A DNA stretch of 40,036 nt, taken from the IMG/VR virus record IMGVR_UViG_3300032233_000872, positions 1 to 40,036 of that record; one strand, 5' to 3'. Shown here in pieces: positions 2,108 through 35,475 of this stretch (positions are counted from its first letter, which is position 1; each line of letters opens with the position of its first letter). A program made the translations under genes and the position numbers. The notes under the pieces are model-generated. The model saw nothing but the letters and a program-made list of their open reading frames with translations. It ran no database searches and had not been told where the DNA came from. This DNA comes from a virus (taxonomy: Duplodnaviria > Caudoviricetes).

Positions 2108-2322
2108 TCTTTCTCCTTTATGTTTTTTGTTATTGAACCTAACCCCAGCATTTCGATGGTAGAGAATGGCACATAGTGCCATGTCTCCCTCCACTTGATG
2201 CCTTCGTAATCAACTACAACCACTTGAAGATCCATGAGATTGACCCCTGTCTCTTCATAGTTTGTAACCGTTACAAGCCCCCTACGGGTGGCTATCTGCA
2301 TATTACACTTGATAGATATCAT
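2104..2322 (-). CDS. Hypothetical protein, 72 aa
   Basis: Start MISIKC at 2322 with GAGGAG RBS. Confidence 0.6.
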   Translation of the reverse strand: MISIKCNMQIATRRGLVTVTNYEETGVNLMDLQVVVVDYEGIKWRETWHYVPFSTIEMLGLGSITKNIKEKE

Positions 2323-3295
2323 ACTGCTCCTCATCACTGGTGTTAGAGAACTTGAACGAACCATAGTTCGGTGCTGTCGGAACAAACGTGTTGTTACACC
2401 ACTGAACCACCTCGTCCTCGGTCATCTTGCGGTAGAACGGCTCATAGTTCTGATCCTCATCATTATCCCAACAATGACAATCTTTCACCAACCAGCCACA
2501 CCACATGCATGAGCCACAAGTGTGACACTCGTGAACGTCCTCGTTCACAAGGTCATACACTTCGTTGGTGCCACAGAACGGACACTCAACCTCATACATG
2601 TCGCCATACCAATCCTCATCATCGTCCAACATGTATGTGTCACGTTCTATTGGTGTACGTGTAGTGTACGTGTTGCCAGTCCACGAACCATAACCATACG
2701 AAGAACTGTAGCCGTACGATGACTTAGCCGGTGCAGGTGTGTAACAGTACGAATAGTTACTCCACCACACGCCATCAGACCAGTGACCATCAGACTCGTT
2801 GAGAATATAGTACTCAGAGTTCGCATGACGGTCAGCAGTAAGCACAACCAACTTAGAACCCTTAGCCCAATTCTCTAAAGACTTACGGACAGTAAGATCA
2901 TCAAGAGCGTACACACCACCCAACGATGGCAGATACTCTGACGCAAAGATGTTCGTGTCACTACGATTGTCACCTACAGCGGGTTTGATGGGCAGAATGC
3001 CGTTGTGACCAACGACAGTTAGATCATCAGTACCTACCTTGAACGGATGACAATTCGTGGTGTCAGTAACACCATGAGTTGTTATACGTGAATGAAAGAT
3101 GGCATGACCCTTGACTCGTGAACGAACCTCAGTGAAGCGTTCTAACACTTCCTCAAAGTTCATACCCTTGCCAGTGACAATGGAATCGCCCATATGAACA
3201 GCGAAACCAAAACCATCATCATTGTACTTAGCACCGTTGCGTAGATCTTCCGAGTCCACATCAACGCCACTAGGAATAAAAGTTAATAAACACAT
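2303..3295 (-). CDS. Class II (Ntn) glutamine amidotransferase with Cys-rich C-terminal domain
   Basis: N-terminal MC nucleophile, NDDGFG, HSRITTHG, NCHPF, GHNGI, RSDT; C-terminal CPFC...CHTCGSCMWC...CHC. Confidence 0.9.
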   Translation of the reverse strand: MCLLTFIPSGVDVDSEDLRNGAKYNDDGFGFAVHMGDSIVTGKGMNFEEVLERFTEVRSRVKGHAIFHSRITTHGVTDTTNCHPFKVGTDDLTVVGHNGILPIKPAVGDNRSDTNIFASEYLPSLGGVYALDDLTVRKSLENWAKGSKLVVLTADRHANSEYYILNESDGHWSDGVWWSNYSYCYTPAPAKSSYGYSSSYGYGSWTGNTYTTRTPIERDTYMLDDDEDWYGDMYEVECPFCGTNEVYDLVNEDVHECHTCGSCMWCGWLVKDCHCWDNDEDQNYEPFYRKMTEDEVVQWCNNTFVPTAPNYGSFKFSNTSDEEQYDIYQV

Positions 3296-3312
3296 TCAGT
3301 ATACCTCTTTCC

Positions 3313-3337
3313 GATAATCCCGACGGTCGGGATTATC
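3313..3337. repeat. Palindromic element copy 1 (core only)
   Basis: GATAATCCCGAC-g-GTCGGGATTATC, 12-bp arms, 17 nt from the GATase start. Confidence 0.95.
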
Positions 3338-3368
3338 ATTTGTTTTTTGTTGAGTAATGCTATTGGTT

Positions 3369-4823
3369 CTAGTAAGAACTACGTGCATCAGAACGCTTGA
3401 TTAGTGACACAAGATTACTGTACTTAGGGTCATGTTCAACCCAATCAGCAAACACATTGAAGTCCATCTTGTGATGTTCTTTCATCTTGCTGACACGCCC
3501 TGCACTAGTGTACGCCCACAATGCATGAGTGAACTCTAGATAACCCAAAGCACGATTAGGATTCAACGCACCAGCGAAACAACGCAACTCAATAGTGTGT
3601 TGGTTACGACAATTCACAGCAACACTACGATCACCATACGAACGGTGACGTGCATAACCATAAATGTTGTCCAACTCATTCTCCGTAATAGTCCCATAGT
3701 GACTGTTACGTGAAGAGATGCGTGTCATTGCAGGCACGTTGTGATAGATGAACGACAAGAACCCGTAAAGATGCGGGCTAGAACTAGTACGTTCATGCAA
3801 ACGCTTAGTATAGAAAGCGTTGCGGTTGATATGGATATGGAAACCAACATCATGATTGTAACTAGGGTCATGATATTTGTATGAACGGAAACCATACTGG
3901 CTTAAAGCCTTGAATGGTTGCCAATCAAAATAGTTCTGATACATGTCAAGCGTATGAGGTTGTGTAACAATCTCAAAGCCATCACGCAATGAACCATCTT
4001 CCTTGAGGTATAGGTGCTCTTTGTCAATCATGTCCTGAAAGAAACTCGCACCATGATACAGATCGCACTTCTCTGATTCTGTTTCGCATTCAAAGCCCAT
4101 CATGGGTTCATGAACAAACTCTGAACGGTTGAAACGATGCTGACCACGAATCATCATTGCACGATCGTCTTCAGTACCAACAAAGAAGATGCGGTCATCA
4201 GCATCACGCATTGCACTGTAATTGAGAATGAGTCCACTATTGTCGTCACAACTGCATGGTCGGTCATCATCTTCATGATAAACCTCATCACACTGCTCAC
4301 AAGTTGCTATGCGATTCTCAAAGCAACTATGACAATAGTAATCGTCTCTACGATAACGGTTGTCAAACTGGTAGTAGTCACCATCACATATGTTGAGCAT
4401 TTCACCACACCCAGCACATTCTCTGGCATCTTCCTCACATGCCGTACACAATGTGATGTGTGTGTGTTCCCTGCTACTAAGACGCACAGGTTCCTCACAC
4501 CATTCACATTCATCAGCACAACTAGGACACACCGAAGTCATGAGATACTCTCTCTGCCCCTGCAAAACAGAGGTAACGACAATATTCTCAGGATCGTGCA
4601 CCCTAGGAACCAACCTAGTGTCGTAAGACCGTATGAAGTTCATCACCTCATGGTGTCTTGCGTCAGAGCAATCGGCACATTGAACCACAGCGTACTGTGG
4701 AAACAATGGACGATCACTGTAGTCAGTTGGCACTGTGTGCTGACTCAGGTACGTACGGTAAGAACCGTACCCGTGTTGCTCAATAATTCTGTCCCCGAGG
4801 GACATATGGGTTCCGTTAGGCAT
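3369..4823 (-). CDS. Putative amidoligase (COOH-NH2 ligase, glutamine-synthetase-like fold) with multi-CxxC N-terminus
   Basis: GFECETE, KEDGSL..GFEIVTQP, GFHIHIN, RSVAVN, TIELR motifs; seven CxxC pairs in the N-terminal half; start MPNGTH at 4823 with AAGGAG RBS. Confidence 0.88.
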   Translation of the reverse strand: MPNGTHMSLGDRIIEQHGYGSYRTYLSQHTVPTDYSDRPLFPQYAVVQCADCSDARHHEVMNFIRSYDTRLVPRVHDPENIVVTSVLQGQREYLMTSVCPSCADECEWCEEPVRLSSREHTHITLCTACEEDARECAGCGEMLNICDGDYYQFDNRYRRDDYYCHSCFENRIATCEQCDEVYHEDDDRPCSCDDNSGLILNYSAMRDADDRIFFVGTEDDRAMMIRGQHRFNRSEFVHEPMMGFECETESEKCDLYHGASFFQDMIDKEHLYLKEDGSLRDGFEIVTQPHTLDMYQNYFDWQPFKALSQYGFRSYKYHDPSYNHDVGFHIHINRNAFYTKRLHERTSSSPHLYGFLSFIYHNVPAMTRISSRNSHYGTITENELDNIYGYARHRSYGDRSVAVNCRNQHTIELRCFAGALNPNRALGYLEFTHALWAYTSAGRVSKMKEHHKMDFNVFADWVEHDPKYSNLVSLIKRSDARSSY

Positions 4824-4867
4824 TGTATTCTCCTTGTTTGTTTGTTTATATTTGTTTACCACTAGGT

Positions 4868-4933
4868 ATTAGTTAGTGGAGTTGAACACATAATCCCGAC
4901 AGTCGGGATTATGTGTTCTCACCATCAACCAAT
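4868..4933. repeat. Palindromic element copy 2 (extended hairpin)
   Basis: 17-bp perfect arms GAACACATAATCCCGAC-a-GTCGGGATTATGTGTTC (4884-4918) plus imperfect outer stem. Confidence 0.95.
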
Positions 4934-5260
4934 CAACTGAACTTTTCCAGTAAGTGTCCACCCTTTCCACGCTTCACTTCCATCAACCAATATTTTGTTT
5001 CCATTCTTGTATTGGAGGAAAAGAAACTTTTTACCCTTAGCCGTATCCTTGTCAAAACTATTTATAGCAGACAAATAATTCTTTTTTGTTTCACCAGAAC
5101 GATACACACCAATTTCTGTCATACCAATACCATTTGGTTCTGTTCTATACCACAACTCGCCATTAGATATGTAAAGCGTCTGAATAAACCAAGAAACTTC
5201 TTTAATTGGAGTTGAGTTAACAGAATGTATCATTCGCACTCTGTCGTTATAGTAATACAT
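4925..5260 (-). CDS. Hypothetical protein
   Basis: 111-aa ORF, TAATG coupling to the upstream gene. Confidence 0.7.
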   Translation of the reverse strand: MYYYNDRVRMIHSVNSTPIKEVSWFIQTLYISNGELWYRTEPNGIGMTEIGVYRSGETKKNYLSAINSFDKDTAKGKKFLFLQYKNGNKILVDGSEAWKGWTLTGKVQLIG

Positions 5261-5592
5261 TATTCAGTCTCACTATCTTCACTCGGTTCAGTAACAATCT
5301 CAAAGCCATCAAATAACGACAGATATGTTTCCGCCCTACCAATCGCCTTATGCAAAATTACTGCTTCAGTTTCCTTACCAAGCAAAAGGTTTATGATGGT
5401 TTCCTCACCATATTCGCTCATATCGTACCATTCGTTTAATGGGACTAACCTAACCCCAAAAAAACTTCTTGGACTATGAACTACTAAAGCAAGTTCTTTA
5501 GTGTGGTAACCATCAAACTTGTACTCAACAATAGAAAGCCAATGGCTTTTTCTGCTAAGACCAATAGTGATCCGATCGTGTTCAGCATTCAT
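5260..5592 (-). CDS. Hypothetical protein
   Basis: 110-aa ORF, tightly packed. Confidence 0.7.
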   Translation of the reverse strand: MNAEHDRITIGLSRKSHWLSIVEYKFDGYHTKELALVVHSPRSFFGVRLVPLNEWYDMSEYGEETIINLLLGKETEAVILHKAIGRAETYLSLFDGFEIVTEPSEDSETE

Positions 5593-5594
5593 TT

Positions 5595-5915
5595 CTATAT
5601 CTCCATTCCATAAGTGAGACGATTGAAGTCTCTAGTTGCCCAATAATGATCTTCAATAGCGTTATCCCATTCTTTATACATAATCACAGTCATACCGATT
5701 GCGCCAGTCTGCACTACAGCAGATATCACAACTGCACCGAGAGTTTGCGAACCCCAATATTCTTTAATCAAGAACTGATAGTTCACAAACGTAGTCATAG
5801 CCCACAAAATAAGCCACATAAAAAATACATAGCCACTCGTGTTCCGTTCAATCCTAGTGCGATTAACCTCGCTGTAGGCTTCACGAATATTTTGCAGATG
5901 TTGTTTCTTATCCAT
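5595..5915 (-). CDS. Two-TM membrane protein
   Basis: Start MDKKQH at 5915 with AAGGA RBS (the longer track ORF runs through the hairpin); two hydrophobic segments. Confidence 0.75.
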   Translation of the reverse strand: MDKKQHLQNIREAYSEVNRTRIERNTSGYVFFMWLILWAMTTFVNYQFLIKEYWGSQTLGAVVISAVVQTGAIGMTVIMYKEWDNAIEDHYWATRDFNRLTYGMEI

Positions 5916-5948
5916 TTCATTTTCCTTTTCTACTAAACACAATATCCG

Positions 5949-6012
5949 ATTGTGAATAGTGGTCGCCACATAATCCCGACAGTCGGGATTATGTGACAGC
6001 ACCATCAACAAT
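5949..6012. repeat. Palindromic element copy 3 (extended hairpin)
   Basis: 14-bp perfect arms CACATAATCCCGAC-a-GTCGGGATTATGTG (5967-5995); basal stem ATTGT/ACAAT. Confidence 0.95.
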
Positions 6013-6018
6013 TACTTA

Positions 6019-6405
6019 TTACGTATAGCGCACATCATAAGCAAACAAATAAGCAGTATGTTCATTAACTACTCCATTTACCTCAGTGCATACACTGATG
6101 GCAACATCGGTGTATTCATAACCACCAGCACGAACAGAAAGATAATTATCATCTTCCCCTGATGACGGATCCCAAAGAAACTCAATGTAATCGCAACCCC
6201 AGTTGATATCACTAGCGTATTTTTTTGCGAAGTCCAATGCTGAATGAAGATCAAAAAACAATCTACGAAAGTCTCTATGACCATACTCGCTGTCAGAAAC
6301 GTAAACAACATAAGCAGTTTTGTAACTATTGGCTGTTCTGTTAAACACGCAACAGTTACTAACCCACTCATCTGAGATCGCTTTAAGTTCTGATACCAAT
6401 TTCAT
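6019..6405 (-). CDS. Hypothetical protein
   Basis: 128-aa ORF lying between hairpin copies 4 and 3. Confidence 0.75.
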   Translation of the reverse strand: MKLVSELKAISDEWVSNCCVFNRTANSYKTAYVVYVSDSEYGHRDFRRLFFDLHSALDFAKKYASDINWGCDYIEFLWDPSSGEDDNYLSVRAGGYEYTDVAISVCTEVNGVVNEHTAYLFAYDVRYT

Positions 6406-6451
6406 ATCTTTATATCTCTCTCTCTATGTCTGTTTGTATTCCCTACCCGCA

Positions 6452-6514
6452 CTTACGAATAGTGGTGGGGACATAATCCCGAACTCGGGATTATGTCACC
6501 GCACCATCAGTAAG
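6452..6514. repeat. Palindromic element copy 4 (extended hairpin, variant centre)
   Basis: 13-bp arms GACATAATCCCGA-ac-TCGGGATTATGTC (6470-6497); basal stem CTTAC/GTAAG. Confidence 0.95.
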
Positions 6515-6519
6515 AACTA

Positions 6520-6756
6520 TTACGAATACCAATCCGTGATAGTTGTCCCGTCAATAATGGGCTTAATGATGCCGTTGCCAAAATTGCACAACTTCACACG
6601 AGCACCCAACGAGAACTCGTCGCAAAGATAATCACGCATGTAATCAGCCTTTGCAAGATACTCGCACTCACGAAACATGAAGCACTCACCGTCCCACATT
6701 TCAATCCACACTTGATTGCCCTGTAGGAACACTCCTGCTACATTTGTCTCACTCAT
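6520..6756 (-). CDS. Hypothetical protein, 78 aa
   Basis: Start MSETNV at 6756 after purine-rich GAAAGAGAGAA; between hairpin copies 5 and 4. Confidence 0.7.
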   Translation of the reverse strand: MSETNVAGVFLQGNQVWIEMWDGECFMFRECEYLAKADYMRDYLCDEFSLGARVKLCNFGNGIIKPIIDGTTITDWYS

Positions 6757-6814
6757 TATATTCTCTCTTTCTGCTTTAACTGCCACACTGTAGTGCGAAC
6801 AGTACCGCCACAAT

Positions 6815-6881
6815 AATTGTGAACAGTAGTGGTGCCATAATCCCGACGGTCGGGATTATGGCAACCGTACCGCTAACAATT
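6815..6881. repeat. Palindromic element copy 5 (extended hairpin)
   Basis: 15-bp arms TGCCATAATCCCGAC-g-GTCGGGATTATGGCA (6833-6863); basal stem AATTGT/ACAATT. Confidence 0.95.
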
Positions 6882-6885
6882 CTAA

Positions 6886-7299
6886 TTAAAGAATGTTCTG
6901 CAATGCCTTGATCAAAGCGAGACGCTCTGCCTTGGTGCACTTCGCATACTTTGATGCCTCATCAACCGCATTGAACTTCTTTGCTGTTGTTGTTTTCTTG
7001 CCACCAAGTTCACGCATCGTGAAGTACGATGCGTCGGATGCCTTAGCAAACTTGTTGTAGCAGTTGATCGCACTGCTGATCTTGTTCTGGATCGTCTTGA
7101 CGCTCTTGTCTGTTTTCTTTGCGATCTCTTTCGCAATGACGATCTTCACGCCTTGCTTGAGATCTTTTTCTGTTGCCTCCAACAACTCAACCAAACTCTT
7201 CCCAAACAACCACAAGTTCTCTTGTGACGTTCCGACTGAGTTCACGTAAGCGATTCCGCTTGCGATGGTCGTTGCTGTTGTTGCTGTGTTGCTTTTCAT
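6886..7299 (-). CDS. Lys/Ala-rich protein with possible HTH; first gene of the early operon
   Basis: 137 aa, AAAGGGG RBS; AKEIAKKTDKSVKTIQNKIS resembles a helix-turn-helix. Confidence 0.75.
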   Translation of the reverse strand: MKSNTATTATTIASGIAYVNSVGTSQENLWLFGKSLVELLEATEKDLKQGVKIVIAKEIAKKTDKSVKTIQNKISSAINCYNKFAKASDASYFTMRELGGKKTTTAKKFNAVDEASKYAKCTKAERLALIKALQNIL

Positions 7300-7325
7300 T
7301 TTTCTGTTCCCCTTTCAAGGGATAG

Positions 7326-7348
7326 ATAATCCCGACGGTCGGGATTAT
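7326..7348. repeat. Palindromic element copy 6 (core only)
   Basis: ATAATCCCGAC-g-GTCGGGATTAT, 11-bp arms, 26 nt from the 7299 start. Confidence 0.95.
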
Positions 7349-7587
7349 GGTTTGGATAGGCGACCACACACACACTGCATGGCTTATTGCACGCTTGTAT
7401 GCGCTGTCTCCCATATATAGTTATTGCTCGTATTGGCGCCTTTCGCTTGTTGCCCAATATGGGGAAGGGTTTGCGGTTTTGCGCTACAGCAGGCATGGGC
7501 GCATGGCCCCCCACCCGTACCCCAAATCAAAGGAGTCCCGACTCGTGCGTGTCTGAATTTATTTTCTTTTCTATTCTGGATAGGTAA

Positions 7588-7603
7588 AGTGACCTAGGTC
7601 ACA
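7588..7603. promoter_or_regulatory. CRP/GlxR-like palindromic site
   Basis: AGTGA-CCTAGG-TCACA matches TGTGA-N6-TCACA at 9/10; perfect 14-bp palindrome 7589-7602; intergenic. Confidence 0.5.
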
Positions 7604-7617
7604 TACCACTGTAGTGT

Positions 7618-7887
7618 CTAGCAGTCCCACTTTTTGAGTGATAGTGCTTTACGTGTTGGTCGTCCTTTGGAGTCTTTCATTGGTCCGGGCATACCGCCCA
7701 TTCGTGCGCAGAACGACTTACGTCGTGCTGCTGACTTGGGACTCTTGGCTGCTTGTTTTGCTGATACTGGTGGTTTTAGGGTTCCACCTGTTTGCGCTTT
7801 GTATGAGGCTCTGCCTTTGGCGTTGAGTCCGCCTGCAGGGTTTTTGCCTTCTTTGCGTGTCCATGCTGCTGTTTTTTTGCTTGCCAT
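7618..7887 (-). CDS. Conserved basic phage protein (DUF6321-like)
   Basis: WTRKEGKNPAGGLNAKGRAS...RRKSFCARM...LKKWDC pattern recalled from aquatic phages. Confidence 0.75.
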   Translation of the reverse strand: MASKKTAAWTRKEGKNPAGGLNAKGRASYKAQTGGTLKPPVSAKQAAKSPKSAARRKSFCARMGGMPGPMKDSKGRPTRKALSLKKWDC

Positions 7888-7991
7888 TACTTCTTCTTAG
7901 TACCCATTTTTTTAGGCATTGCAGAGTTTAACATCATTTTGCCGTTAGGCATTTTGTGCATCTTCTTAGATGCACTTTTTGCGTGTTTCAT
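7887..7991 (-). CDS. Tiny basic Met/Lys-rich peptide, 34 aa (not in ORF track)
   Basis: MKHAKSASKKMHKMPNGKMMLNSAMPKKMGTKKK; AAGGAG RBS; TAATG coupling to the next gene. Confidence 0.7.
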   Translation of the reverse strand: MKHAKSASKKMHKMPNGKMMLNSAMPKKMGTKKK

Positions 7992-8028
7992 AGTTGCTCC
8001 TTATTGTGCTTCTGGGATGTAGTGCCAA

Positions 8029-8070
8029 TGTCTTTCAACTGTAGTGCCTACAGTTTCAAGACAGTTTTTT
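8029..8070. terminator. Hairpin with plus-strand T-tract (possible terminator or leader structure)
   Basis: TGTCTT-tc-AACTGTAG-tgc-CTACAGTT-tc-AAGACA followed by GTTTTTT. Confidence 0.4.
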
Positions 8071-8097
8071 CTCTTCCCCCCCTATAGTCCCCCCCGT

Positions 8098-8137
8098 TTG
8101 TAACATCAAGCATTTAGTTACAAAAACAACAGTTAGT
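8098..8137. promoter_or_regulatory. Back-to-back GTTACAA motifs (divergent putative phage promoters)
   Basis: TTGTAAC (8098-8104), 12 nt, GTTACAA (8117-8123); the plus copy is 21 nt before the TerS ATG. Confidence 0.65.
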
Positions 8138-8566
8138 ATGGCATCTACAGAAGCACTATTAACCAGCGATCAGCAACGGTACATGGACTGGCTATGCACC
8201 GCTCCATCTGAACGTGTACCCTCTTCTAAGAAGCAGTATGCGATCCTTGCGTCTGTAGATGTCACAACTCTACGACGCTGGGAAAAGAAACCAGCATTCC
8301 GACAAGAATGGCAGACCCGTGTGGACGACCTTCAAGGGTCGCCTGAGCGTACTCAAGCGTTGTTGGACACACTGTACAACAAGGCTCTGGAAGGTGACAC
8401 CAAGAGTGCCCAGTTGTATCTGCAGGCTACTAACCGTATGGCTCCTGCCACGATTGAGGTTAAGAGTGAGAAACGTTCTGCCGAGTTGTCTGATAGTGAG
8501 TTGGACGAACTAATTGCTGCTATGGCATCTAGAGAAAAGCAGTCTAGGGCTTTGAAGGTTGTTTAG
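8138..8566 (+). CDS. Terminase small subunit-like HTH protein (phBC6A51-like)
   Basis: VDVTTLRRWEKKPAF HTH, LYNKALEGDTKSAQLYL, LSDSELDELI; first late gene, upstream of TerL. Confidence 0.7.
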   Translation: MASTEALLTSDQQRYMDWLCTAPSERVPSSKKQYAILASVDVTTLRRWEKKPAFRQEWQTRVDDLQGSPERTQALLDTLYNKALEGDTKSAQLYLQATNRMAPATIEVKSEKRSAELSDSELDELIAAMASREKQSRALKVV

Positions 8567-19958: not shown

Positions 19959-20800
19959 TGCCTTCAATGACAACAACATACACATTTACTAACGGTAACG
20001 TTATTGATTCTCTTCAGATGAACACAAACTTCAACGATGTTAAAGCAGCGTTCAACACTAATGCTGTTCAGGTTGACGGTACTGTTAAAGCAACTGAAGC
20101 ATCTTTGAATGACGGTATTGTTACAACTGCTAAATTGGCAAACCTTGGTATAACAACAGGCAAGATTGCTGATCTTGCCGTTACTGCAGCAAAAATTGCT
20201 GATAGTACTATTACTAGTTTAAAGATTGCTGATGATACTATTGTTAATGCTGATATTAACTCTGCTGCAGCAATTGTTGATACCAAGTTGGCTACTATTG
20301 CTACTGCTGGGAAGGTGTCTAACTCTGCAACTACAGCAACTAGTGCTAACACTGCTAGTGCTATTGTTGCTAGGGATGGTTCTGGCAACTTTACTGCAGG
20401 TACAATTACCGCATCTTTGAGTGGTAACGCTACATCCGCAAACAGTGCAACTACTGCTACAACTGCTACTAATGCCACTAATGCTACGAACGCAACGAAT
20501 GCTACTAATGCTACAAACGCTACTACTGCTGCGAACCTTACTGGTTTTGGTAGAGGTACTGTTGTTACTACTTTTACTGGACAGTCTGCTCAAAACAGGG
20601 TAAGAATGCTTGCTTCTTTTGCTCACGGTTTAGGTGGTCAACCTAGTGGGGCTGCAGTCTATAACGGTGATGGTAGTGCAATGCAAGGCTTGTTCCATGT
20701 GTTTTCGGTTGACGCAACAAACATTACTGTTGAGGCTGTAGATTATTCAAACCAGTTTATTAGTATTACTGGTCGTATCTATTGGATGGCGTACCGATAA
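19958..20800 (+). CDS. Tail fibre-like protein
   Basis: MNTNFNDV, repeated (V/I)TxxK(I/L)AD, IVARDGSGNFTAG and (TNA)n. Confidence 0.75.
   Translation: MPSMTTTYTFTNGNVIDSLQMNTNFNDVKAAFNTNAVQVDGTVKATEASLNDGIVTTAKLANLGITTGKIADLAVTAAKIADSTITSLKIADDTIVNADINSAAAIVDTKLATIATAGKVSNSATTATSANTASAIVARDGSGNFTAGTITASLSGNATSANSATTATTATNATNATNATNATNATNATTAANLTGFGRGTVVTTFTGQSAQNRVRMLASFAHGLGGQPSGAAVYNGDGSAMQGLFHVFSVDATNITVEAVDYSNQFISITGRIYWMAYR
20440..20530 (+). repeat. Degenerate 9-nt (Thr-Asn-Ala) coding tandem repeat
   Basis: ATTATTATNATNATNATNATNATNATTA with varied third positions. Confidence 0.85.
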
Positions 20801-24907: not shown

Positions 24908-27900
24908 ATGACTAACTATGATCCTCGTCTTGAACTTGCCCGACGTTTAGCCAACAGCCGTAAGACCAATACCCCATTGAACTTTGGGAATAAAATCAAT
25001 GTACCTACTACTGGTATAACTGATACTAAAACTAGAGATCTGTATAATCAGGTTACTGATACTAAACTGAGCATTACACAGCAGAATCCTAACTTGGCTG
25101 CACAGGTTCGTGCTATTGGTGGTGGATCATCCAGTAGTTTTGGCAGGCTTGGACGCAACCTCTTGGGTGTAGTGACCACAATAGACACTCCTAGGCGTGC
25201 TGTTATTTCTACTGTGCGTGAAGTAACAGATGTTCTTGATAGTGATCCCAATACGAAAGGTCGTCTTTCGGATTGGGCTAAACAGACCAAAGACCCTACT
25301 TATGGTTTTGGTAAAGCATTTCCAATGCAAGGTAACTTTGGTCGTTTTGTTGGGTTCATTGGTGACGTTGGTTTAGATCCTTTAACGTATGTTACTGCTG
25401 GCGCAAAAGGTGCTGCAACGTTTGGTGAACGTCTTGCATTGTATGAAACTCTTAGGGCTAAAGGTATTTCTACTGAAGTTGCTGGACAGTTTCTCCAGAG
25501 AGGTAAGACTGCTTTGACTAAGGCTGGTGTCACTAGCGAACAGTTGGCAGATATGGGTTTGAAGCGTTCTGGCATGTACATGTTTGGTTCTAAGTTGCGT
25601 ATCCCTTTGTCTGGTCCTGTTGGTGAAGCAATTCTTTCTGGCACATCTAGGGCTAAAGTTGGTTTTACTGGTACACGTTTGGGTGAAGTTTTGCAAAAAG
25701 GTTTCATGGGTACTGGGAAGAATCAAGAACAATGGATTCGTAGTTTTCGTTTGGCTTTAGCACGTAACGAACCATTGCCATTAAACATGCTAAAAGGCGC
25801 TGAACAGATTGCTGGTATTCCTGCTCGTGACATTGCCGTAGGGTTTTTAAATGCTAATACTGCTAGAGAAGCAGCACAAAATATTGCAAAAAAAGAATTT
25901 GGTATTCGTGTTGGAATAATGTTGAATGAGATTGGTCCAGAAAATATTGAACCATATCGCAATACTGTTTATCAAGTTATGGAAGGTACTAGACCTGCTT
26001 CTAATGCTGCTGAACAAAAACTTGCTCAGGATTTAAGTAAAATATATCAGGATGTTTGGGAGACGGTTAAAACTAGATATCAAGCAGTTGACCCTGAGGC
26101 AAGTAAAGGTTTTGTTAACGAGTATTTTCCTTGGGTAATTACTGATGATGCAAAGAAAATTTCTGCTGACCTTGATGCTCCTTGGGTTAAAGATTTGATG
26201 ACTGTTCTTGAACCTAATCCACTTGATCTTCAGGGTTCGTTTAAATCACGAACTTTGCAAGAAGGAAACAAATGGTTTTGGACAGTGGAGAATGGTGTCA
26301 AGAAAGACTATATTCTTAAAGAAGCAGATCTTAACATTACACGGTTGAATGAAATTTCTCGTAATGCTATTGGTGTTGACTTTTGGAAAACTGATGCTGC
26401 AGATGTTCTTGGTATCCACTATGTTGATTCTGCCAGCAAGAATATGGGTTTGCTTGAGTTGATTAAAGATCTTGATAGGTCTGGTGTTGCACGTAAAACT
26501 CTTCGTGAAGCAGGACAATATGAGGAGATGACTGCTGCACATGCTGCTGCTATGGGTTTGAAAGTTGAAGAACGTACTCAAGGGTTGAAAGATCTTGTAG
26601 ATGCTGTTGGAAATGCTGTTAAAGAGGTTAACGGTCGTTTGCCGGGTGCTGTAAAAGATCTCGAAGGTGTAGTGCTAAAGGCTGATCAAGAATTGGCTGC
26701 AGCAACCGTTGAAGCAGCAAGAGCAGGTCTTTTAAAGAACACTATTGTTCCAGATGAGTTTGTTGATTATTTCAATATCTTTAAAGAAGAACTAGCAAAA
26801 AATGCTGACTATGGTGCTGCTGTTCGTGCGGTTGAAGCAGAGATGGAAAGAGTAACTGGAAAACAAAACATTTTTGATTTAAAACAAAGATTCTTTGATT
26901 CATTTGAAAAAACTCCAGAATGGCAATTAATTCGTGATGATATACCTATTCTAACTGGACAGATAAGAAGAGGTCCAGCGGCGGCTAGAACTGTTGAGGG
27001 TGGTTTAGAGGGATGGCGTTCTAGAGTTGCGAACTTTGGTAGACCTGTTGCTGAAGTACCTTTAGTTGGTCCTACTACTCGTGAAGCAACAGTCAATGCT
27101 GCATCTATGGCTGCAGCGAAGAAACAACTATCTAATGCTAAACGAAAGTTAACCAATCTTCGTTCGCAATACGACAATATTTTTGAGTCAGAAATTCCTC
27201 ACCTTGCTGCTGCTACTAACGAAATGTTAGATAGACAAATTTCAAGCATTGATGATTTAGAGATTGCTATTGCTCAATGGCAAGATGAGGCTGACGCTTT
27301 GGCTCGCAGTATTCCTGCTACCAAAGGTCAGATAACTAAAACACAAAAAGGTATTAGCACTACAGCAGTTGCGTCTATGGAACAGCAGGCTAGGGTCAAT
27401 GCTCATCTGAAAGAGGTTAACGATTTAGCAGCAAGTATTCTTGATGATCTTGAACAGGCTATTCAACGTCACGAAGAATTTGTTGAATTAAGTAATATTT
27501 TGTCTACTTCAATGGACAAGATCATTGATGGTAAACGTGTTGCTGGCGTTGATGCTAAAAGACTTAAATCTATTATTGCTGGTACTGGTACAGGTAAAAG
27601 TTCTATAGAAACTTTTGGTAAAGATACTGGTGCGGTTAAACAATGGATTGGTGAAAACATTGACGGATTAGATTTCTTTAAAGAAATTCAATCCGTTGTT
27701 GGTGTTGCAAATGTTATAACTAAAGATGGTGTTAAAAGGATGACACTATCCGAAGTTTTTGAAGTTGTTGCTAGGGCTGGAATAGATATCAATAGTACGT
27801 TGGACAGTATTAATGCCGCTGCTTTTGTTATTGCTAGGGATATAAAATTTTATGGCAAGGATGCTGTCCCTGAAGTTTTGACTTCTTTGCGTAATGAATT

Positions 27901-30900
27901 GATGGAAATGGTCAAGATACAGGCGGAAAAAGTTGGGTTTGCTCAACGTGCACGTATGGGCGATCAAGTGTTCAAAATTGCACCAGAAGTTAAAGATGCA
28001 GAACAAAGAATAAATTATTTCTTTAAAGTAATAAATAAAAATGAAGATCTTTTAACGCAACTTGAAAAACGTTGGGAGTTTAGTGATATTGCTCGTGAGC
28101 ATATCAACCTTGCAGGGATTGACGTCAATATAAATTTTGAAGATTATTTGAATGAGCATGCTTCACTATTTGGTTCAGACATATTAGATGATCAAGCATT
28201 TGTTGATTCGTGGATAAGACAACCTGAAAACACTACACTTGCGCAAATACTTGAACTTAACGACGATAACTTTAAAAGATTTACTGATGAATTAGATACG
28301 GCAAACAAAAATATTGATGAACTTTGGAATCAGTACGGTGACAGAATCTCTACTATGAGATCACACAAAGCATTGAAGGACTCCAAGGGTAAACCAATGC
28401 AGTTTTCACGTCAAGACCTTGAAGGTCTTACTTATACTACGCAGGAATATGCACAGCAGTTAACTGACCGACTTGCTGCTTATACTGTTGCTAGCGAAGT
28501 TGAACGCAGGTTCTCTGCCTTGGGCATGGAACTTGCGTTAATGGGTCATGAAGTACCTACCGATGGTATGCATGCCGCAATTATGCGTAAAGTTGCGCAA
28601 GAACATTTAGAGGCTGTATCAGCGTCACAAAATACTATTACTACAGCCTACAACAAACTTTCTGCGATAAGAGATGAGTATGAGGTTATTCGTGGTGCTG
28701 CACAATCACCATCATATGCGGGTGAAACCCCTCAAAATGCTTTGAACAGGTTGTTTGAAGAAGCATACGAATCTGAACCCGAAGCAATGAACCAAGTTTT
28801 TGGTTCTATTATTAAATTCCATTCTGACGTAAAAGGATATGAAAGCAGACTTAAAAGTTTTGGTGCTAAAAGAAGAGCAGAATACATTGAGCCTGTAAAT
28901 GCTTTCTTTGAAAGTACACCTGCTTTAAAACAGATGGTCCTTGAAGTAGGGTTGACAAAGGTTGATGTAGATGCTGTGGGTAGAGAATCTCGTATCAGGG
29001 CAATAGTTTTAAAGCAACTAACTGACGAAAATTTTGATCCAGCAATCTTGAATGTATCTGATCAAGAGGTGCAAGCAATTAGGGGAAGAGCACGAGAATT
29101 AGTATCTTTGGATCGTCAAACAAGAGGACAGAAAACAGAATTTGTTGCAGATCAATTGCGTCCTTGGTTTAACGAGGTTCAACCTTATGTGCGATATACT
29201 GAAAAGGATGCTAAGAGAGCATTGAAAGTTTTTGCACCTTTGAATGATGAGTATTCCATTAGGCGTTTCTTTGTTGATCAACTTGGTGGTTCTAGACGTA
29301 CTCGTGCAGCAAATTCTTTGAGTGCTGGGCAAACCTCTATACAAACCATTCCCGGTGCTTTAAATGTTGAACTTTCTAATATTCGTTCAAGAAGCCGACA
29401 TATTTTTAATGTTCTTGATCCGCAGACAGATATAAACGAATTTTTGCGTGATCCTTTCGGTTTGCCTACTGGACCTTTTTCTTATCTTGAAAGTTTGAAG
29501 GGTTTAAGCAATACTTTAGATCAACAAATTAAAAGAGTTTCTGGTCTTGATTCAGTTAAAGGTATTGTTACTGCAGAAAAACAAGCATTAAAAGTTGGTG
29601 AATCTGCAAGACTTGCTAATGCAAGACTTGCCGAAACTGACCCTACAGCGGCTATGGCTGCTAGGTCGTCTAAGTATGTTTTGACTCCAGAGAACCAGCA
29701 GAAAGTTGCTAACGCTGTACGTAAAATGCGTGCAGAACATCTTCGTTTGACAAATAAACCCGAGTATGCAATTGCTTTGCATGATCAACAAATGACTGAA
29801 GTCTTGCGTAAACTTGCTGCTGTTGATGGTCACACAATGTCTGATTTGCGCAGTGGTGATGCAGGATGGGTTATATCACCTAAGCCAAGTAAAATTAAAC
29901 TTGCTGATCATGGTGTAGATGATACTATTGCAAACACGTATTTTAAGATTGAAGATGCTGCTGGTGAATACACTGTAGACAGTTATCTTATCAGTCCTGA
30001 TGGTACTAGAGTTATCAACGTTGAACAGTCATCACGAGCAATGGCAGCCAAAAGGGAAATGATTAATAAAGAAATCAGACGTTTAATGAAAATAAACTCT
30101 GATGATCCAATGATTGACAAACTTATTGATGAATCAAATGCTTTGATTGTGCAAAAGTGGCGTCACGTAACTGTTAAAAAAGTTAGAGATGCTAGCGAAG
30201 AAGTTGATGTTGCTAACATGTTTAAGTTAAGCACTGTTCAAACGCCTATTGATAAACTTGAAGGTGAAGCGTTAACTAATAGTATTCTTTTTGGTGGTAT
30301 TACTGGTGAACAGTCTGCACAAAATGTTGCTGACATTATTACTAGTGTAAGATTTGCTACTGAGAATAAATTTGCTACTTTCATGGACCCTAATGCTGCT
30401 AGGGTTAGAAGCCAGACAGCGGACTATTTGTTTGCTAATGATGTTATTGATGACAACATGCGCCAGATGATTAAATCTGGTGCACCTATATCTGATGTAT
30501 TGAATAATCTTATTAGAACACCTGATGGTTCATCTACGACAATTGGTGATATTATTCGTAATTGGCAGTATTCTTTGCTTGGCAAAGAAGCAACTGTGCC
30601 AATTGATCAGTTTCAGTCTGAGGTTGTTTCAAAATTAACTGGTCTTGAAGGTCGTTTGTCTTTCTCCGAGGACGAGTGGGGTGCATTGTTTACTACGCCT
30701 TTCTCTGATGGTGAGGCATTAAGAACCACAAGTAGAATTAGATCTCTTGAATCTCAGTTAAATAAGTTTCGCAAGGCCGCACAAGATGGTCGTAGTCTCA
30801 TTGAGGAAAATGGCGCTCGTGTAGGTGTCCAAAAACGTATTCGAGAAATTGAAGCAGAGATTGCTGATCTTAATCTGCAACTAAAAACTAGGTCTAAAGC

Positions 30901-33700
30901 AACACAGGGTGCTGCTTTGACCAAGTTTCAACAGTTGTTTGATCAGTTTGACTCTGCACGTATTAATGCCCAGAATGAACTTGCTAAGTGGCGCAAGTAT
31001 GCTGATGAAGGTTTAGAAAAAGTTGTTGTAGAAACCCCTAGAGGTCCTAGGAGTGTTTCTGTAGCGTCAAAACTTCAGGAGTTGGAAACTGCTTCTACTC
31101 GCATTAAGAGTCTTAATGATACGGTTGACAATTTTATTGTCAGCCGTACTGGCACTACAGCAAGTGCTGAGAATATTGCTTTCCGCAGAAATGGTTTACA
31201 ACGTTCTTGGGAGTCATCTCCTTCTTACCGTACCATTGCTAATGTTGAGGCTATTTCTTCTAGTCCAGAAATGCAGTTTTATAAATCTCAACGTTCAAGC
31301 GTTAGAGATTTAGAAAAAACCAAGGCAGAGGTTGATAAGCAAATCAAAATTAAACGTGGCAATCTTTCTTATACCGAGAAAGAACTTGTTGAATCTGCGC
31401 AGCAGATTATTAATACTGTTAAAGAGTTTGATGGTGGTGACTTGTCTACTGTTGGACCACTCATGGATTCTTTACGGAATGCTTTTGTTATAACTGCAGA
31501 CAATACTGTTCAGGCTGTAAAGTATGATGGTCTTAGCAGGGATATTCCTAAGGCTACTAAAAATCTTATTGCTGAAATTCAGGCTAGTTTTCCAGAGCAA
31601 CTTCCGTTGTTCACTGTTGATGCTAAGCGTGTACAGCAATTAGAAGAGGCTGTTAACGTTGCTCGTTTTAATGCTTTTGAAAATAGTTTTCTTGTAGGTC
31701 AAGAGACACGTCATGCTAAAGATGCTATGAGTCCGTACAATAAGCAGATAGCAGATCTGCGTGCACGTTTGGTTACGTTACGTGGCAAAGAAGCAGCACA
31801 GTTTACTGAACAGGAAGCATTGTTGGAACGTATTGCTACTGCTATGGGTATTAGCGAAGAGGCTAAAGCAAAAATTCAACGTGAATGGGTTGATGGTTAC
31901 GGCGTTAATAGAAAAGGTCAAGTTTCTACTAAGCCTAAAGCGAAACGAGTTGCTGGTATTTTGCCTAGTGCGGAAGAACGTGTTGTAGCAGCACAAAGTT
32001 TGTATAACTATATTTCATCAGAATACAATAGTATTCTTCCTAGGTTTGAAATTGCTGCAAACGTTTCTGATGCTATTGAATTAAATGTTAGACCAAAAAT
32101 TGAAGAGATGACTCGTCTTATTAAACAAAAGAAAGATTTTGGTAGGGTTGCTATTCGTGGTGAAGCAACCACATCAACATATAAGGGTGTTACTACTGTA
32201 AGGGATGCAAACCTTGAACAGTTCCAAACTTGGTTAAAGGAGGCTACTGATGCCTTGGATGTAGCGTCACTAGATCCTACTGATCCTTTAAATGCTGTTT
32301 TGGCTGAGGCTGCCAGAGCGCAAACTGTTTACGCAAACACTTTGCTTAGCACTAATCAACTCAAGGCTTTCCAACAAATAGAATTAGCAAGATCGTTTCC
32401 TAGTTATATAACTGATGAAATTGTTAAACGCTCTGATGAAGCGTATGTGAGTTTAGCAAAGATTGGTTTGCCGGGTATGGAAGTACCTCAAGAAGTTATA
32501 AATATGTTTGGTGAACTGCGTAGATTTAAAGACCCTGCTTTCTCTAGGGGTTTTACTAAATTCCTTGATACTTACACAAAGTTTTTTAAACGTTACGCAA
32601 CACTCAGCCCCGGCTTCCATGTGCGTAACGCAATGACTAACTCATTTGCATTGATTGCTGCTGGCGGTGATGTTAGGAATTTCCCTGCAGGTTTGCGCAT
32701 GTTTAACGATATGGAAAGAGCGTTGAAGAGTGGCACTACATTGGACGACTGGTTGTTGTCTATTGCTGATCCTGTTCAACGTTCTTATGCTGATGTTGCT
32801 TCTCGTTCAATGTTTGCTGCTGGTGGTGGACAAACTGAAGAACAAATTGGAAAGTTTTTGAGCGAAAAAGGCGATAACTATATTGTTGGTAAGAGTCGTC
32901 TTGTTGGTGGGAAGATTGAAAACTCTGCACGTTTCATGCTTGGTTATGATAGTGCTGTTAAAGGTTTTGATTTCAATGTTGCTGCAGCACGTACAAAACG
33001 TTTCTTGTTTGACTATGAAGATATCGGTCAGGTTGACCGAGCAATGAAAACTATTATCCCGTTCTGGATGTGGACTAGTCGAGCATTGCCTTTGCATTTG
33101 ACTAACATGATTGTGAATCCTAAGCCGTATCAAATATATCGTTCATTTGAACGCAACTTTGAATTCAAAGAAAAACTTGATTTGACTCCTGATTGGGTCA
33201 AGGGACAGGGTGGATTTAAAATTACCAGTGGGATGTATTTGATGCCTGATCTGGGATTCAATAAAATTCCAGAAACAGTTGGACAGATTGGTGATCCAGT
33301 TAAACTGTTGGCAAACGTCAACCCTGCGCTCAGGGTTCCTTTGGAATTGGCTGTTAATAAACAGTTTTATAACAACAGGCAGTTCTCTGATAAACCTAAA
33401 GATATTTCTGGTGGTGGTACAGCAAACTTCTTGTTGCCACTACTTGAGGCTTTGGGTAAAGGCGGAACCAACGCAGAAGGTAAACAAGTCGCTAACGAAA
33501 AAGCATTGTATTTGCTTAGTAGTTTGTTGCCTACTGTTGGTCAGGCTGAACGACTATTACCATCCAGTCCTAGTGGTAAGTCAAACTTACTTGGATATTT
33601 GGGTGTGCCGCTACGTAGTGAATCAGAGTCAATGAAGCAAGCATCATTGTATGAAACATTAAACAAGTTAAATAAGTTAAACAATAGTCAGGGGTTCTAA
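24908..33700 (+). CDS. Giant internal virion / large polyvalent-type protein, 2930 aa
   Basis: Uninterrupted ORF; N-terminal DVGLDPLTYV; C-terminal SPGFHVRN...FDYE...IPFWMW; long helical middle. Confidence 0.8.
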   Translation: MTNYDPRLELARRLANSRKTNTPLNFGNKINVPTTGITDTKTRDLYNQVTDTKLSITQQNPNLAAQVRAIGGGSSSSFGRLGRNLLGVVTTIDTPRRAVISTVREVTDVLDSDPNTKGRLSDWAKQTKDPTYGFGKAFPMQGNFGRFVGFIGDVGLDPLTYVTAGAKGAATFGERLALYETLRAKGISTEVAGQFLQRGKTALTKAGVTSEQLADMGLKRSGMYMFGSKLRIPLSGPVGEAILSGTSRAKVGFTGTRLGEVLQKGFMGTGKNQEQWIRSFRLALARNEPLPLNMLKGAEQIAGIPARDIAVGFLNANTAREAAQNIAKKEFGIRVGIMLNEIGPENIEPYRNTVYQVMEGTRPASNAAEQKLAQDLSKIYQDVWETVKTRYQAVDPEASKGFVNEYFPWVITDDAKKISADLDAPWVKDLMTVLEPNPLDLQGSFKSRTLQEGNKWFWTVENGVKKDYILKEADLNITRLNEISRNAIGVDFWKTDAADVLGIHYVDSASKNMGLLELIKDLDRSGVARKTLREAGQYEEMTAAHAAAMGLKVEERTQGLKDLVDAVGNAVKEVNGRLPGAVKDLEGVVLKADQELAAATVEAARAGLLKNTIVPDEFVDYFNIFKEELAKNADYGAAVRAVEAEMERVTGKQNIFDLKQRFFDSFEKTPEWQLIRDDIPILTGQIRRGPAAARTVEGGLEGWRSRVANFGRPVAEVPLVGPTTREATVNAASMAAAKKQLSNAKRKLTNLRSQYDNIFESEIPHLAAATNEMLDRQISSIDDLEIAIAQWQDEADALARSIPATKGQITKTQKGISTTAVASMEQQARVNAHLKEVNDLAASILDDLEQAIQRHEEFVELSNILSTSMDKIIDGKRVAGVDAKRLKSIIAGTGTGKSSIETFGKDTGAVKQWIGENIDGLDFFKEIQSVVGVANVITKDGVKRMTLSEVFEVVARAGIDINSTLDSINAAAFVIARDIKFYGKDAVPEVLTSLRNELMEMVKIQAEKVGFAQRARMGDQVFKIAPEVKDAEQRINYFFKVINKNEDLLTQLEKRWEFSDIAREHINLAGIDVNINFEDYLNEHASLFGSDILDDQAFVDSWIRQPENTTLAQILELNDDNFKRFTDELDTANKNIDELWNQYGDRISTMRSHKALKDSKGKPMQFSRQDLEGLTYTTQEYAQQLTDRLAAYTVASEVERRFSALGMELALMGHEVPTDGMHAAIMRKVAQEHLEAVSASQNTITTAYNKLSAIRDEYEVIRGAAQSPSYAGETPQNALNRLFEEAYESEPEAMNQVFGSIIKFHSDVKGYESRLKSFGAKRRAEYIEPVNAFFESTPALKQMVLEVGLTKVDVDAVGRESRIRAIVLKQLTDENFDPAILNVSDQEVQAIRGRARELVSLDRQTRGQKTEFVADQLRPWFNEVQPYVRYTEKDAKRALKVFAPLNDEYSIRRFFVDQLGGSRRTRAANSLSAGQTSIQTIPGALNVELSNIRSRSRHIFNVLDPQTDINEFLRDPFGLPTGPFSYLESLKGLSNTLDQQIKRVSGLDSVKGIVTAEKQALKVGESARLANARLAETDPTAAMAARSSKYVLTPENQQKVANAVRKMRAEHLRLTNKPEYAIALHDQQMTEVLRKLAAVDGHTMSDLRSGDAGWVISPKPSKIKLADHGVDDTIANTYFKIEDAAGEYTVDSYLISPDGTRVINVEQSSRAMAAKREMINKEIRRLMKINSDDPMIDKLIDESNALIVQKWRHVTVKKVRDASEEVDVANMFKLSTVQTPIDKLEGEALTNSILFGGITGEQSAQNVADIITSVRFATENKFATFMDPNAARVRSQTADYLFANDVIDDNMRQMIKSGAPISDVLNNLIRTPDGSSTTIGDIIRNWQYSLLGKEATVPIDQFQSEVVSKLTGLEGRLSFSEDEWGALFTTPFSDGEALRTTSRIRSLESQLNKFRKAAQDGRSLIEENGARVGVQKRIREIEAEIADLNLQLKTRSKATQGAALTKFQQLFDQFDSARINAQNELAKWRKYADEGLEKVVVETPRGPRSVSVASKLQELETASTRIKSLNDTVDNFIVSRTGTTASAENIAFRRNGLQRSWESSPSYRTIANVEAISSSPEMQFYKSQRSSVRDLEKTKAEVDKQIKIKRGNLSYTEKELVESAQQIINTVKEFDGGDLSTVGPLMDSLRNAFVITADNTVQAVKYDGLSRDIPKATKNLIAEIQASFPEQLPLFTVDAKRVQQLEEAVNVARFNAFENSFLVGQETRHAKDAMSPYNKQIADLRARLVTLRGKEAAQFTEQEALLERIATAMGISEEAKAKIQREWVDGYGVNRKGQVSTKPKAKRVAGILPSAEERVVAAQSLYNYISSEYNSILPRFEIAANVSDAIELNVRPKIEEMTRLIKQKKDFGRVAIRGEATTSTYKGVTTVRDANLEQFQTWLKEATDALDVASLDPTDPLNAVLAEAARAQTVYANTLLSTNQLKAFQQIELARSFPSYITDEIVKRSDEAYVSLAKIGLPGMEVPQEVINMFGELRRFKDPAFSRGFTKFLDTYTKFFKRYATLSPGFHVRNAMTNSFALIAAGGDVRNFPAGLRMFNDMERALKSGTTLDDWLLSIADPVQRSYADVASRSMFAAGGGQTEEQIGKFLSEKGDNYIVGKSRLVGGKIENSARFMLGYDSAVKGFDFNVAAARTKRFLFDYEDIGQVDRAMKTIIPFWMWTSRALPLHLTNMIVNPKPYQIYRSFERNFEFKEKLDLTPDWVKGQGGFKITSGMYLMPDLGFNKIPETVGQIGDPVKLLANVNPALRVPLELAVNKQFYNNRQFSDKPKDISGGGTANFLLPLLEALGKGGTNAEGKQVANEKALYLLSSLLPTVGQAERLLPSSPSGKSNLLGYLGVPLRSESESMKQASLYETLNKLNKLNNSQGF

Positions 33701-34896: not shown

Positions 34897-35111
34897 TTGT
34901 GCCCTGCGTTCATTGATGACCGCATTTGCCCCTCAATGCTACGTGCTGTCTCTTCTAATGCTTGTGCTGATTCTTCACCGTAGTTGAACTCAATGAAGTA
35001 CAGGATCGCCATCACTTGTGATGCGAGCCATGGTGCGTCAATGACCATTGGGGCTTCTTGTTCAGTCTGCGGTTCCTGCGGTGTAATGTCATTCGTCAAT
35101 TTGATCTCCAA
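34893..35111 (-). CDS. Hypothetical protein
   Basis: 72-aa ORF, TTG start after AGGA, overlapping both neighbours. Confidence 0.65.
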   Translation of the reverse strand: MEIKLTNDITPQEPQTEQEAPMVIDAPWLASQVMAILYFIEFNYGEESAQALEETARSIEGQMRSSMNAGHN

Positions 35112-35475
35112 TTCCTAGTCGTTTAAGTATTGTGGGGTTTGTTAACATTATATCTCTAAGTTGTCCGAAAGCGGCATCTCTTAGTCGTGAGGCGTGCATT
35201 CTTGATATGCCGAGTCGGTCACCCAGAACTTGTAGTGTGACCCGCTCAGAATTGATTGCATCAATTATGTAGCGGTCTTGTTCGGATAGTTGCTCCATGC
35301 ATTCGGCTACTGCCTCACGGAATGGTTGTAGTTCTTCTAGAGACTCTTCAGGTTCGTCATACGGTGCAGCAGCCATCAACGCCTCCATGGGCGTTAATGG
35401 TCTGCCAGCACCAATGTCATGACTATCTAGGTAAGCGTCTAGCGACACTGCCCTAATTGGTTGTGCTTCATTCAT
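35089..35475 (-). CDS. Stand-alone sigma-70 region 4-like HTH protein
   Basis: LSEQDRYII...TLQVLGDRLGISRMHASRLRDAAFGQLR; 128 aa, no region 2 evident. Confidence 0.8.
   Translation of the reverse strand: MNEAQPIRAVSLDAYLDSHDIGAGRPLTPMEALMAAAPYDEPEESLEELQPFREAVAECMEQLSEQDRYIIDAINSERVTLQVLGDRLGISRMHASRLRDAAFGQLRDIMLTNPTILKRLGIGDQIDE

Follow-up and report, generated by a model that had tools for sequence, protein, structure and literature searches.

The DNA analyzed here, 40,036 nucleotides of IMG/VR virus record IMGVR_UViG_3300032233_000872 (the window in what follows), is a complete circular podophage assembly of 39.9 kb with a 123-nt terminal repeat. Its leftward early arm starts ~800 bp upstream of TerS and holds all six copies of a palindromic dyad, each ahead of a minus-strand gene. 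These palindromes, or cores, are probably operators of an autoregulating homodimeric repressor encoded by the first early gene, and the messenger RNA (mRNA) hairpins that enclose the inner copies are probably a separate element, whose arms would act as homology islands. By comparison with known systems, we regard this arrangement as a variation on stoperator- or KorB-type control. A sequence-only reading of the window had not recognized the element from any described family, and no description of it or of this phage family was found in the literature searched, in which subscription journals are thinly covered.

The six dyads are built from twelve exact ATAATCCCGA half-sites, and a search of the window at up to one mismatch gave 14 matches against a chance mean of 1.11 (maximum 4 in 100 shuffles). 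The perfect stems reported earlier at 3313-3337, 4884-4918, 5967-5995, 6470-6497, 6833-6863 and 7326-7348 were recovered identically, as were the minus-strand starts downstream of them (3295, 4823, 5915, 6405, 6756 and 7299). The absence of a full copy elsewhere also holds at up to three mismatches and majority spacing in the 31.9 kb from TerS onward. The dyad centre measures 5 nt in five copies and 4 nt in copy 6473. Arms described as invariant over 10 bp are exact in the window, but their innermost base varies in a relative with the same core, which leaves a conserved half-site of 9 bp, ATAATCCCG. Pairing of the bases just outside the core is real for the four inner copies, but absent at 7326 and almost absent at 3314.

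Relatives were collected by a TerS scan in which the best 80 of 334 loci were kept; 44 of these with at least 3 kb upstream, together with L234 from a scan of GTDB, form a set of 45 loci. The GTDB scan gave two loci, one of them on a 38-kb phage-like contig inside a metagenome-assembled genome, and L195, whose pair of dyads differ in their spacers, was left out. Of the 44 TerS loci, 36 carry several dyad copies at a constant spacing. The array and a first-gene protein occur together in 36 of the 45 loci and also in L188 and L234, where the array was found on relaxed search, and both were absent from 7 of the 45, five of which were re-tested by relaxed search. Loci L196/197, L202, L215/218/223 and L225 have TerS without array or detectable first-gene protein, and their early region opens with other genes. 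Where arrays were found, each locus has two to six dyads confined to the early arm, with 2 approximate copies in 181 kb downstream of TerS versus 127 upstream (the latter partly by construction).

Comparison of close relatives separates the core from its surroundings. The L001/L124/L156 contig and metagenome contigs L043, L078 and L015 share the window core with a centre of 4 or 5 nt; the last three are those that resemble the window by blastn among 120 core-pattern metagenome loci listed (~320 estimated). The remaining core-pattern loci, which lack such resemblance, were treated as chance matches or terminators. L123 (84-87% DNA identity to the window over long blocks) and L145 (97% TerS identity) keep the outer arms of the window but have other cores, at 96-97% TerS identity: CAAG(A/T)TATACC-N4-GGTATATCTTG in L123 and CAAGAATTACC-N4-GGTAATTCTTG in L145, in all four of their respective copies. 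Three further cores lie within the same A-type arms in L159, L172/L184 and L179, and contigs of run X3 match the window up to 4890 and then switch to the L123 core. Because close relatives hold the same arms around other cores, the arms are position-specific and the core is genome-specific; the single conserved structure of core plus arms proposed earlier gives way to two elements that evolve separately.

Several properties of the cores resemble those of protein binding sites. Copies without outer stems are common, several overlap the regulator stop codon, and the first copy lies inside the regulator open reading frame (ORF) in L159, L172 and L184. Departures from a genome's own half-site were one-sided, that is uncompensated, in 44 cases and mirrored in 1 (some of the matches at three mismatches may be chance), which argues that half-sites decay as operators do and not as hairpins. 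The -10-like box at 7353-7358 places the inferred transcription start beneath operator 1; in 12 of 28 dereplicated phages a CTAT[CG] box precedes the edge of the first copy by 6-26 nt, and no CTAT box occurs within 33 nt upstream of the inner operator sites. In L123 (about 925-975 and 3150-3180), one operator contains a short tandem duplication, and an unrelated hairpin replaces the core where the window has operator 6; L123 also carries an extra operator hairpin upstream of that position. A copy at 2215-2255 of L043 has both half-sites changed in step, suggesting template-switch correction of a palindrome.

In relatives, a gene for a basic protein of 133-170 aa follows the first copy. To relate this protein to the palindrome, the 45 loci were reduced to 28 by dereplication at 90%, 27 of them with TerS. 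Across these 27 phages the palindrome correlates with the first gene (Mantel r 0.586, p 0.0005; partial r 0.585 given TerS) and does not follow TerS (r 0.17; -0.165 given the first gene). The sliding-window signal is highest over residues 64-81 of the window protein (partial r 0.31-0.42; maximum 0.415 at 70-81), and a second peak falls at residues 88-99. In five pairs of phages whose TerS is 95-99% identical, both the first gene and the palindrome differ. Linkage by itself is enough for the Mantel result, but crossed combinations of helix and half-site argue for recognition. The window protein and those of L156/L078 share 82% identity in an 11-residue helix and 26-27% elsewhere, and the half-site is the same; L199 and L228 share 55% in the helix and 73% elsewhere, and the half-sites differ. 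L159 is nearer L172/L184 outside the helix, yet has its helix and half-site in common with L171/L175/L204. Within subgroups (59 pairs) the helix gives a partial r of 0.38 and the remainder of the protein one of -0.03, and a GQR motif is found in all nine phages with an outer AGT and in none of the 19 others, a contrast that probably reflects few independent events. Outside the covariation set, L188 has a TIR-type helix with a TGATA half-site, like the rest of its subgroup.

Structure prediction gives a putative dimer and a weak lead to a DNA-binding fold. The AlphaFold model of the window protein places helices 45-63 and 67-83 around a short turn, with a predicted local distance difference test (pLDDT) score of 81. 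Its homodimer prediction scored 0.72 against 0.00 for the best control, with contacts agreeing at least 86% across runs and pLDDT at least 79; the mark applied is reached by 20 of 30 solved homodimers and by 1 of 23 single chains. The predicted interface consists mostly of N- and C-terminal helices. For the model of the L184 relative, DNA-binding domains of KorB, ParB, SopB and VirB (also Spo0J) account for 7 of the 50 highest VIA rows, where six ParB-family rows besides the best KorB row stand at Z 3.6-4.3, and for the three leading Foldseek rows. Atlas neighbours of L184 are DUF3102 (24 of 30 matches, 0.92) and a plasmid partition protein (0.89); the likeness to DUF3102 rests on 139-149 shared features, below the 170 typical of members, and the DUF3102 Pfam profile (PF11300) had no match among 16 + 18 proteins. 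A search of PDB sequences with the first-gene protein alignment gave nothing relevant, and the 137-aa window protein has no Pfam match to a CTPase domain.

A number of observations weigh against the operator reading. The rest of the protein retains a partial r of 0.233, one subgroup with a near-identical helix has a differing outer half-site, and the within-subgroup test uses 59 non-independent pairs and a helix window chosen after seeing the data. Because the gene is linked to the palindromes, some of the signal comes from co-inheritance. First-gene proteins form one family loosely: the window group against the rest is not significant in hhalign (probability 0.7%) and 7 of 10 subgroup pairs lie above E 0.001, which makes the cross-group alignment behind the sliding window uncertain. 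In the seven negative loci, the protein could be too divergent for hidden Markov models built from positives. The helix-turn-helix match is below threshold (Pfam Sigma70_r4_2, residues 57-77, E 0.045) and the model of the window protein itself gave no clear fold match and no ParB-type domain among the rows listed. The KorB match of L184 is weak (Z 4.9, root-mean-square deviation 3.3 A, 87 aligned) and is outranked by an unrelated importin (Z 5.4), with Foldseek E above 1. Finally, both the 1-nt shorter centre of copy 6473 and the doubly changed copy of L043 fit a hairpin better than a rigid operator. With these points counted, an operator for a dimeric phage protein, one of four roles that the sequence-only reading had left side by side, is the best supported for the core as a putative assignment: the core changes with the first-gene protein, its changes are one-sided, and it occurs inside ORFs and without arms.

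The same protein and sites could instead serve activation or antitermination, with the hairpins as terminators passed with help of the bound protein. All binding-related evidence fits this equally, the hairpins sit after stop codons, and the -10-like box is without its usual last T; promoters with such a box can need an activator. We consider it unlikely nonetheless, as operator 1 over the inferred transcription start and the in-ORF sites of L159, L172 and L184 are repressor positions, and the four inner hairpins are followed by no U-tract on the mRNA strand. Many first genes also seem to have rare starts, which fits a scarce protein: ATT in L160/162/163/167/170, L177/178, L213/216/219 and L228/229/233, ATC in L201/206, TTG in L187/199/200/230/232 and GTG in L172/173/184, with ATG in the window copy. 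A rare start codon behind a good ribosome-binding site would keep the regulator scarce.

The outer arms behave as RNA structure. As RNA, each of the four inner copies folds into a hairpin of ~65 nt (z -5.96 to -7.40) whose stability on the mRNA strand is 2-5.5 kcal/mol greater, and copies 7326 and 3314 have little beyond the core (z -1.79 and -2.87). Below the four inner copies lies an additional basal stem of ~12 bp that had been missed earlier. In an alignment of 26 copies, 90.2% of 468 outer-stem cells are paired and 12 of 18 pairs show two-sided change; the covariation score was reached by none of 500 shuffles and slid controls pair at 31-59%, although the structure was derived from the same, related copies and the result leans in favour for that reason. 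Over the 12 basal pairs, 51 cases of G·U were counted for the mRNA strand versus 6 for the other, a bias that makes the outer stem a single-strand structure on the transcript side. The four inner copies have a total stem of close to 30 bp, interrupted by an internal loop, and offer about two turns of conserved double-stranded RNA; substrates of RNase III of about two helical turns fit such a stem and loop (PMC1540722). By this analogy, the inner hairpins are likely an RNase III-type processing or stability element, and the earlier proposal of such hairpins finds support for the outer stem of the four inner copies alone. A second outer-arm family surrounds other cores in L164, L171, L175, L176, L181, L191, L204 and L209, in many cases with an ACTRYTCA-like motif in the 3' arm that resembles the window basal stem; folding of the arms alone with a pair-count cut-off proved too permissive to classify copies and was used for contexts only.

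An RNA element could account for the whole palindrome if the tip were free and made uniform in each genome by gene conversion, in the manner of the RNase III sites of T7. Agreeing with this are the strong covariation and strand-biased pairing of the basal stem, the length and internal loop suited to two-turn substrates and the doubly changed L043 copy. It leaves unexplained the tracking of the tip with one first-gene helix, the commonness of cores without outer stems, the cores inside ORFs and the 44-to-1 excess of one-sided changes, and we judge it improbable.

Gene content changes between the hairpins. Between the window and L156, similarity at 6012-7270 is left in the hairpins only (islands 6414-6526 and 6816-6888), and the inter-hairpin genes differ in each of L043, L078, L145 and L123. 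One gene sits after a C-type hairpin in L156 and after A-type hairpins in L145 and L123. Copy 6473 looks imported, because it combines a 4-nt centre with 95% identity over 114 nt to the L156 copy. Such exchange, with the hairpins as conserved islands, would suit integron-like site-specific recombination sites that excise or shuffle cassettes, and the part of the sequence-only reading that foresaw changing gene content was borne out. The recombination sites themselves seem very improbable. Some deletions, seen in L043 and in a contig of run X3, stop at gene borders that have neither hairpin nor core, no recombinase was matched among the 48 window ORFs (a host enzyme is possible), and no core-to-core joint appeared among five joints listed from four contig sets, in which contigs drop rare forms. 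Ordinary recombination through short homology, of the kind known from PeSL cassettes (PMC2839356, PMC4122927) and from Cluster O repeats (PMC4351075), suffices, so that a site-specific system is not needed.

Two further explanations were weighed. Protein and sites might form a reduced ParB/parS-like centromere, which would hold or partition the phage genome during a carrier state without integration; this would agree with the weak ParB-family fold matches of L184, with its Atlas neighbours and with the absence of an integrase match among the 48 ORFs. No ParA-like ATPase was matched in the same scan, the protein has 137 aa and no CTPase domain match, and the sites are placed at the promoter and gene borders; we hold this explanation to be decidedly doubtful. 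N4 hairpin promoters have a conserved loop sequence and are used by a virion RNA polymerase. The early location of the palindromes and a giant virion-type ORF of 2930 aa at 24908-33700 (+) recall that system. The loop varies here in sequence and length, the large ORF has no polymerase motif by regular expression and no match to a polymerase family, and the core follows the small first-gene protein. N4-type promoters, an option of the sequence-only reading, are scarcely credible here, with the 2930-aa protein as their polymerase.

Returning to the repressor model, host polymerase would read the regulator gene first, from a promoter at operator 1. The first-gene dimer would bind the operators directly and, judging by position, close down the promoter from which it is made. 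At the five sites downstream it would likely throttle the early transcript, either by roadblock or as a long-range anchor, and in this way restrict when the early genes are expressed. The inner operators would occupy the hairpin tip, where a palindrome merely lengthens the stem. The mRNA hairpins just past stop codons would process or stabilize the transcript in the manner of RNase III sites, and the conserved arms would double as short homology islands through which genes and operator are swapped between relatives by ordinary recombination. A more speculative extension, which we offer tentatively, is heteroimmunity: a CTPase-less KorB/ParB-type dimer of non-integrating podophages, made first, might roadblock the early arm of incoming kin, and escape might proceed by a swap of the regulator followed by rewriting of every operator in place, with the hairpin arms as homology. 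The early arm adjoins the packaging genes and may enter ahead of the remaining DNA.

Several known systems share parts of this proposed design. Cluster A repressors of temperate mycobacteriophages are bound, as monomers, to more than 20 asymmetric, oriented 13-mers (stoperators) per genome (PMC9283540, PMC6550527). As here, many sites lie at the promoter and in short intergenic gaps, the distance between site motifs follows the distance between repressors across relatives, and a block of both initiation and elongation has been proposed, as we propose by analogy. The window phage differs in having symmetric dyads confined to the early arm, a predicted dimer encoded by the first early gene and no integrase found; with symmetric sites it falls outside the Cluster A repressor-stoperator type. 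IncP KorA/KorB operators are dispersed symmetric sites for dimeric global repressors (PMC2665229), and the KorB DNA-binding domain is the best, if weak, regulator-type fold match for the protein of L184. Unlike KorB, the window protein has less than half the KorB length and no CTPase match, belongs to a phage and not a plasmid, and has a putative specificity that switches rapidly between near-identical genomes; without the CTPase domain it falls outside the KorB/ParB group.

The 17-bp dyads of Cluster O mycobacteriophages (PMC4351075) and the ESAS of Cluster K (PMC3203893) similarly have invariant arms and a variable centre and lie in intergenic positions or in ORFs. Cluster O repeats undergo insertions and deletions by recombination between repeats and, unlike here, number more than 30 genome-wide (PMC4351075). 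In both, the motif is shared across the cluster and not replaced, no RNA stem encloses it, and the portions of text available name no cognate protein, though the supplements of the Cluster O and Cluster A papers may. T4-type PeSL cassettes are conserved intergenic stem-loops in a variable early region where genes are swapped, and carry a strong sigma70 promoter and a proven terminator (PMC2839356, PMC4122927); here the inner hairpins have no U-tract, sigma70-like sites are not enriched (7 vs 10.9 expected), and the hairpin tip is a genome-specific dyad. In contrast to integron attC arrays, no cognate tyrosine recombinase was found among the 48 window ORFs. RNase III sites of the R1.1 type likewise are long stems with an internal loop (PMC1540722). 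In the T7 early region they separate early genes on the mRNA strand, but they lack a repeated palindrome that tracks a protein.

Coordinates of the operators, hairpins and genes of the early arm are given below.

Table 1. Features of the early arm of the window (strand., not oriented)
Feature	Position	Strand	Remarks
-10-like box TATCCA (CTATC/G context)	7353..7358	-	4 nt upstream of operator 1; inferred early promoter, by sequence
Operator 1, core only, without outer stem	7326..7348	.	overlaps inferred transcription start; 26 nt ahead of regulator start codon
First gene of the early arm (137 aa); product basic and all-helical, a predicted homodimer and likely regulator that binds the operators	6886..7299	-	putative recognition helix about residues 64-81 (covariation, model)
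Hairpin D (operator 6837-6859 at tip)	6815..6881	-	4 nt past regulator stop codon
Variable 78-aa gene	6520..6756	-	homologue in L078, L123; replaced in L156, L043, L145
Hairpin C (operator 6473-6494, 4-nt centre as in L156, L078)	6452..6515	-	likely import from such a relative
Variable 128-aa gene	6019..6405	-	present in L043, L078; replaced in L156
Hairpin B (operator 5970-5992)	5948..6014	-	RNA fold, covariation
Three-gene unit (5595-5915, 5260-5592, 4925-5260)	4925..5915	-	second and third missing in L043; second in L123 and a run X3 contig
Hairpin A (operator 4890-4912)	4868..4934	-	arms shared with five other cores: L123, L145, L159, L172/L184, L179
Putative amidoligase gene, 484 aa	3369..4823	-	PHROG 16683, unknown function
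Operator 6, core plus 1-bp extension	3313..3337	.	perfect-stem search, RNA fold
Class II glutamine amidotransferase-like gene	2303..3295	-	GATase_4 E 0.0099; GlmS N-terminal part E 3e-5

The rest of the window is that of a podophage without a close cultured relative in INPHARED, where the best matches were 53% (TerL) and 39% (capsid). Among the 48 ORFs scanned, matches were obtained to a P22/SU10-type portal and capsid, helicase, primase, exonuclease and RusA, and none to an integrase, recombinase, ParA-like ATPase or RNA polymerase. Rfam over 3000-8200 returned nothing credible (a single snoRNA match of 14.5 bits against a gathering score of 41). The 2930-aa ORF, with no informative Pfam, PHROG or NCBIfam match, probably encodes an ejected virion protein. 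The gene at 3369..4823, with its Cys-rich N-terminus, is one that we take from familiar motifs to be an amidoligase; it is adjacent to the class II glutamine amidotransferase gene (2303-4823 together, minus strand), with one operator ahead of each. Relatives of the amidotransferase (L125-L142, 18 AT-rich loci, 33-37% identity) showed only AT-rich low-complexity palindromes among the matches listed, and this set was dropped. A stand-alone sigma-70 region 4 protein at 35089-35475 (-) is 86% identical in G001, whose core differs, and is a candidate later-stage activator and not an operator binder. A tail-fibre-like gene at 20165-20530 (+) has internal 9-nt periodic repeats (Thr/Ala/Asn-rich).

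For a kind of phage dyad array known from the Cluster O and ESAS literature without a cognate protein, this analysis proposes a candidate. It adds the distinction between a switchable operator and the conserved RNA arms around it, the localization of the specificity signal to one helix plus a second motif, the near-complete co-occurrence of protein and array, the dimer prediction and the KorB/ParB-like lead. The relatives provide a resource of 28 natural protein-operator pairs with about 15 spellings, including 72%-identical proteins with different sites; with such a natural series a recognition code can be put to direct test, and its small proteins are candidates for orthogonal repressors. 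Even where TerS is 95-99% identical and no integrase can be detected, these phages exchange the regulator and its scattered sites as a set. This prompts one to ask why immunity-like diversity is favoured in them and by what route several sites come to be rewritten at once.

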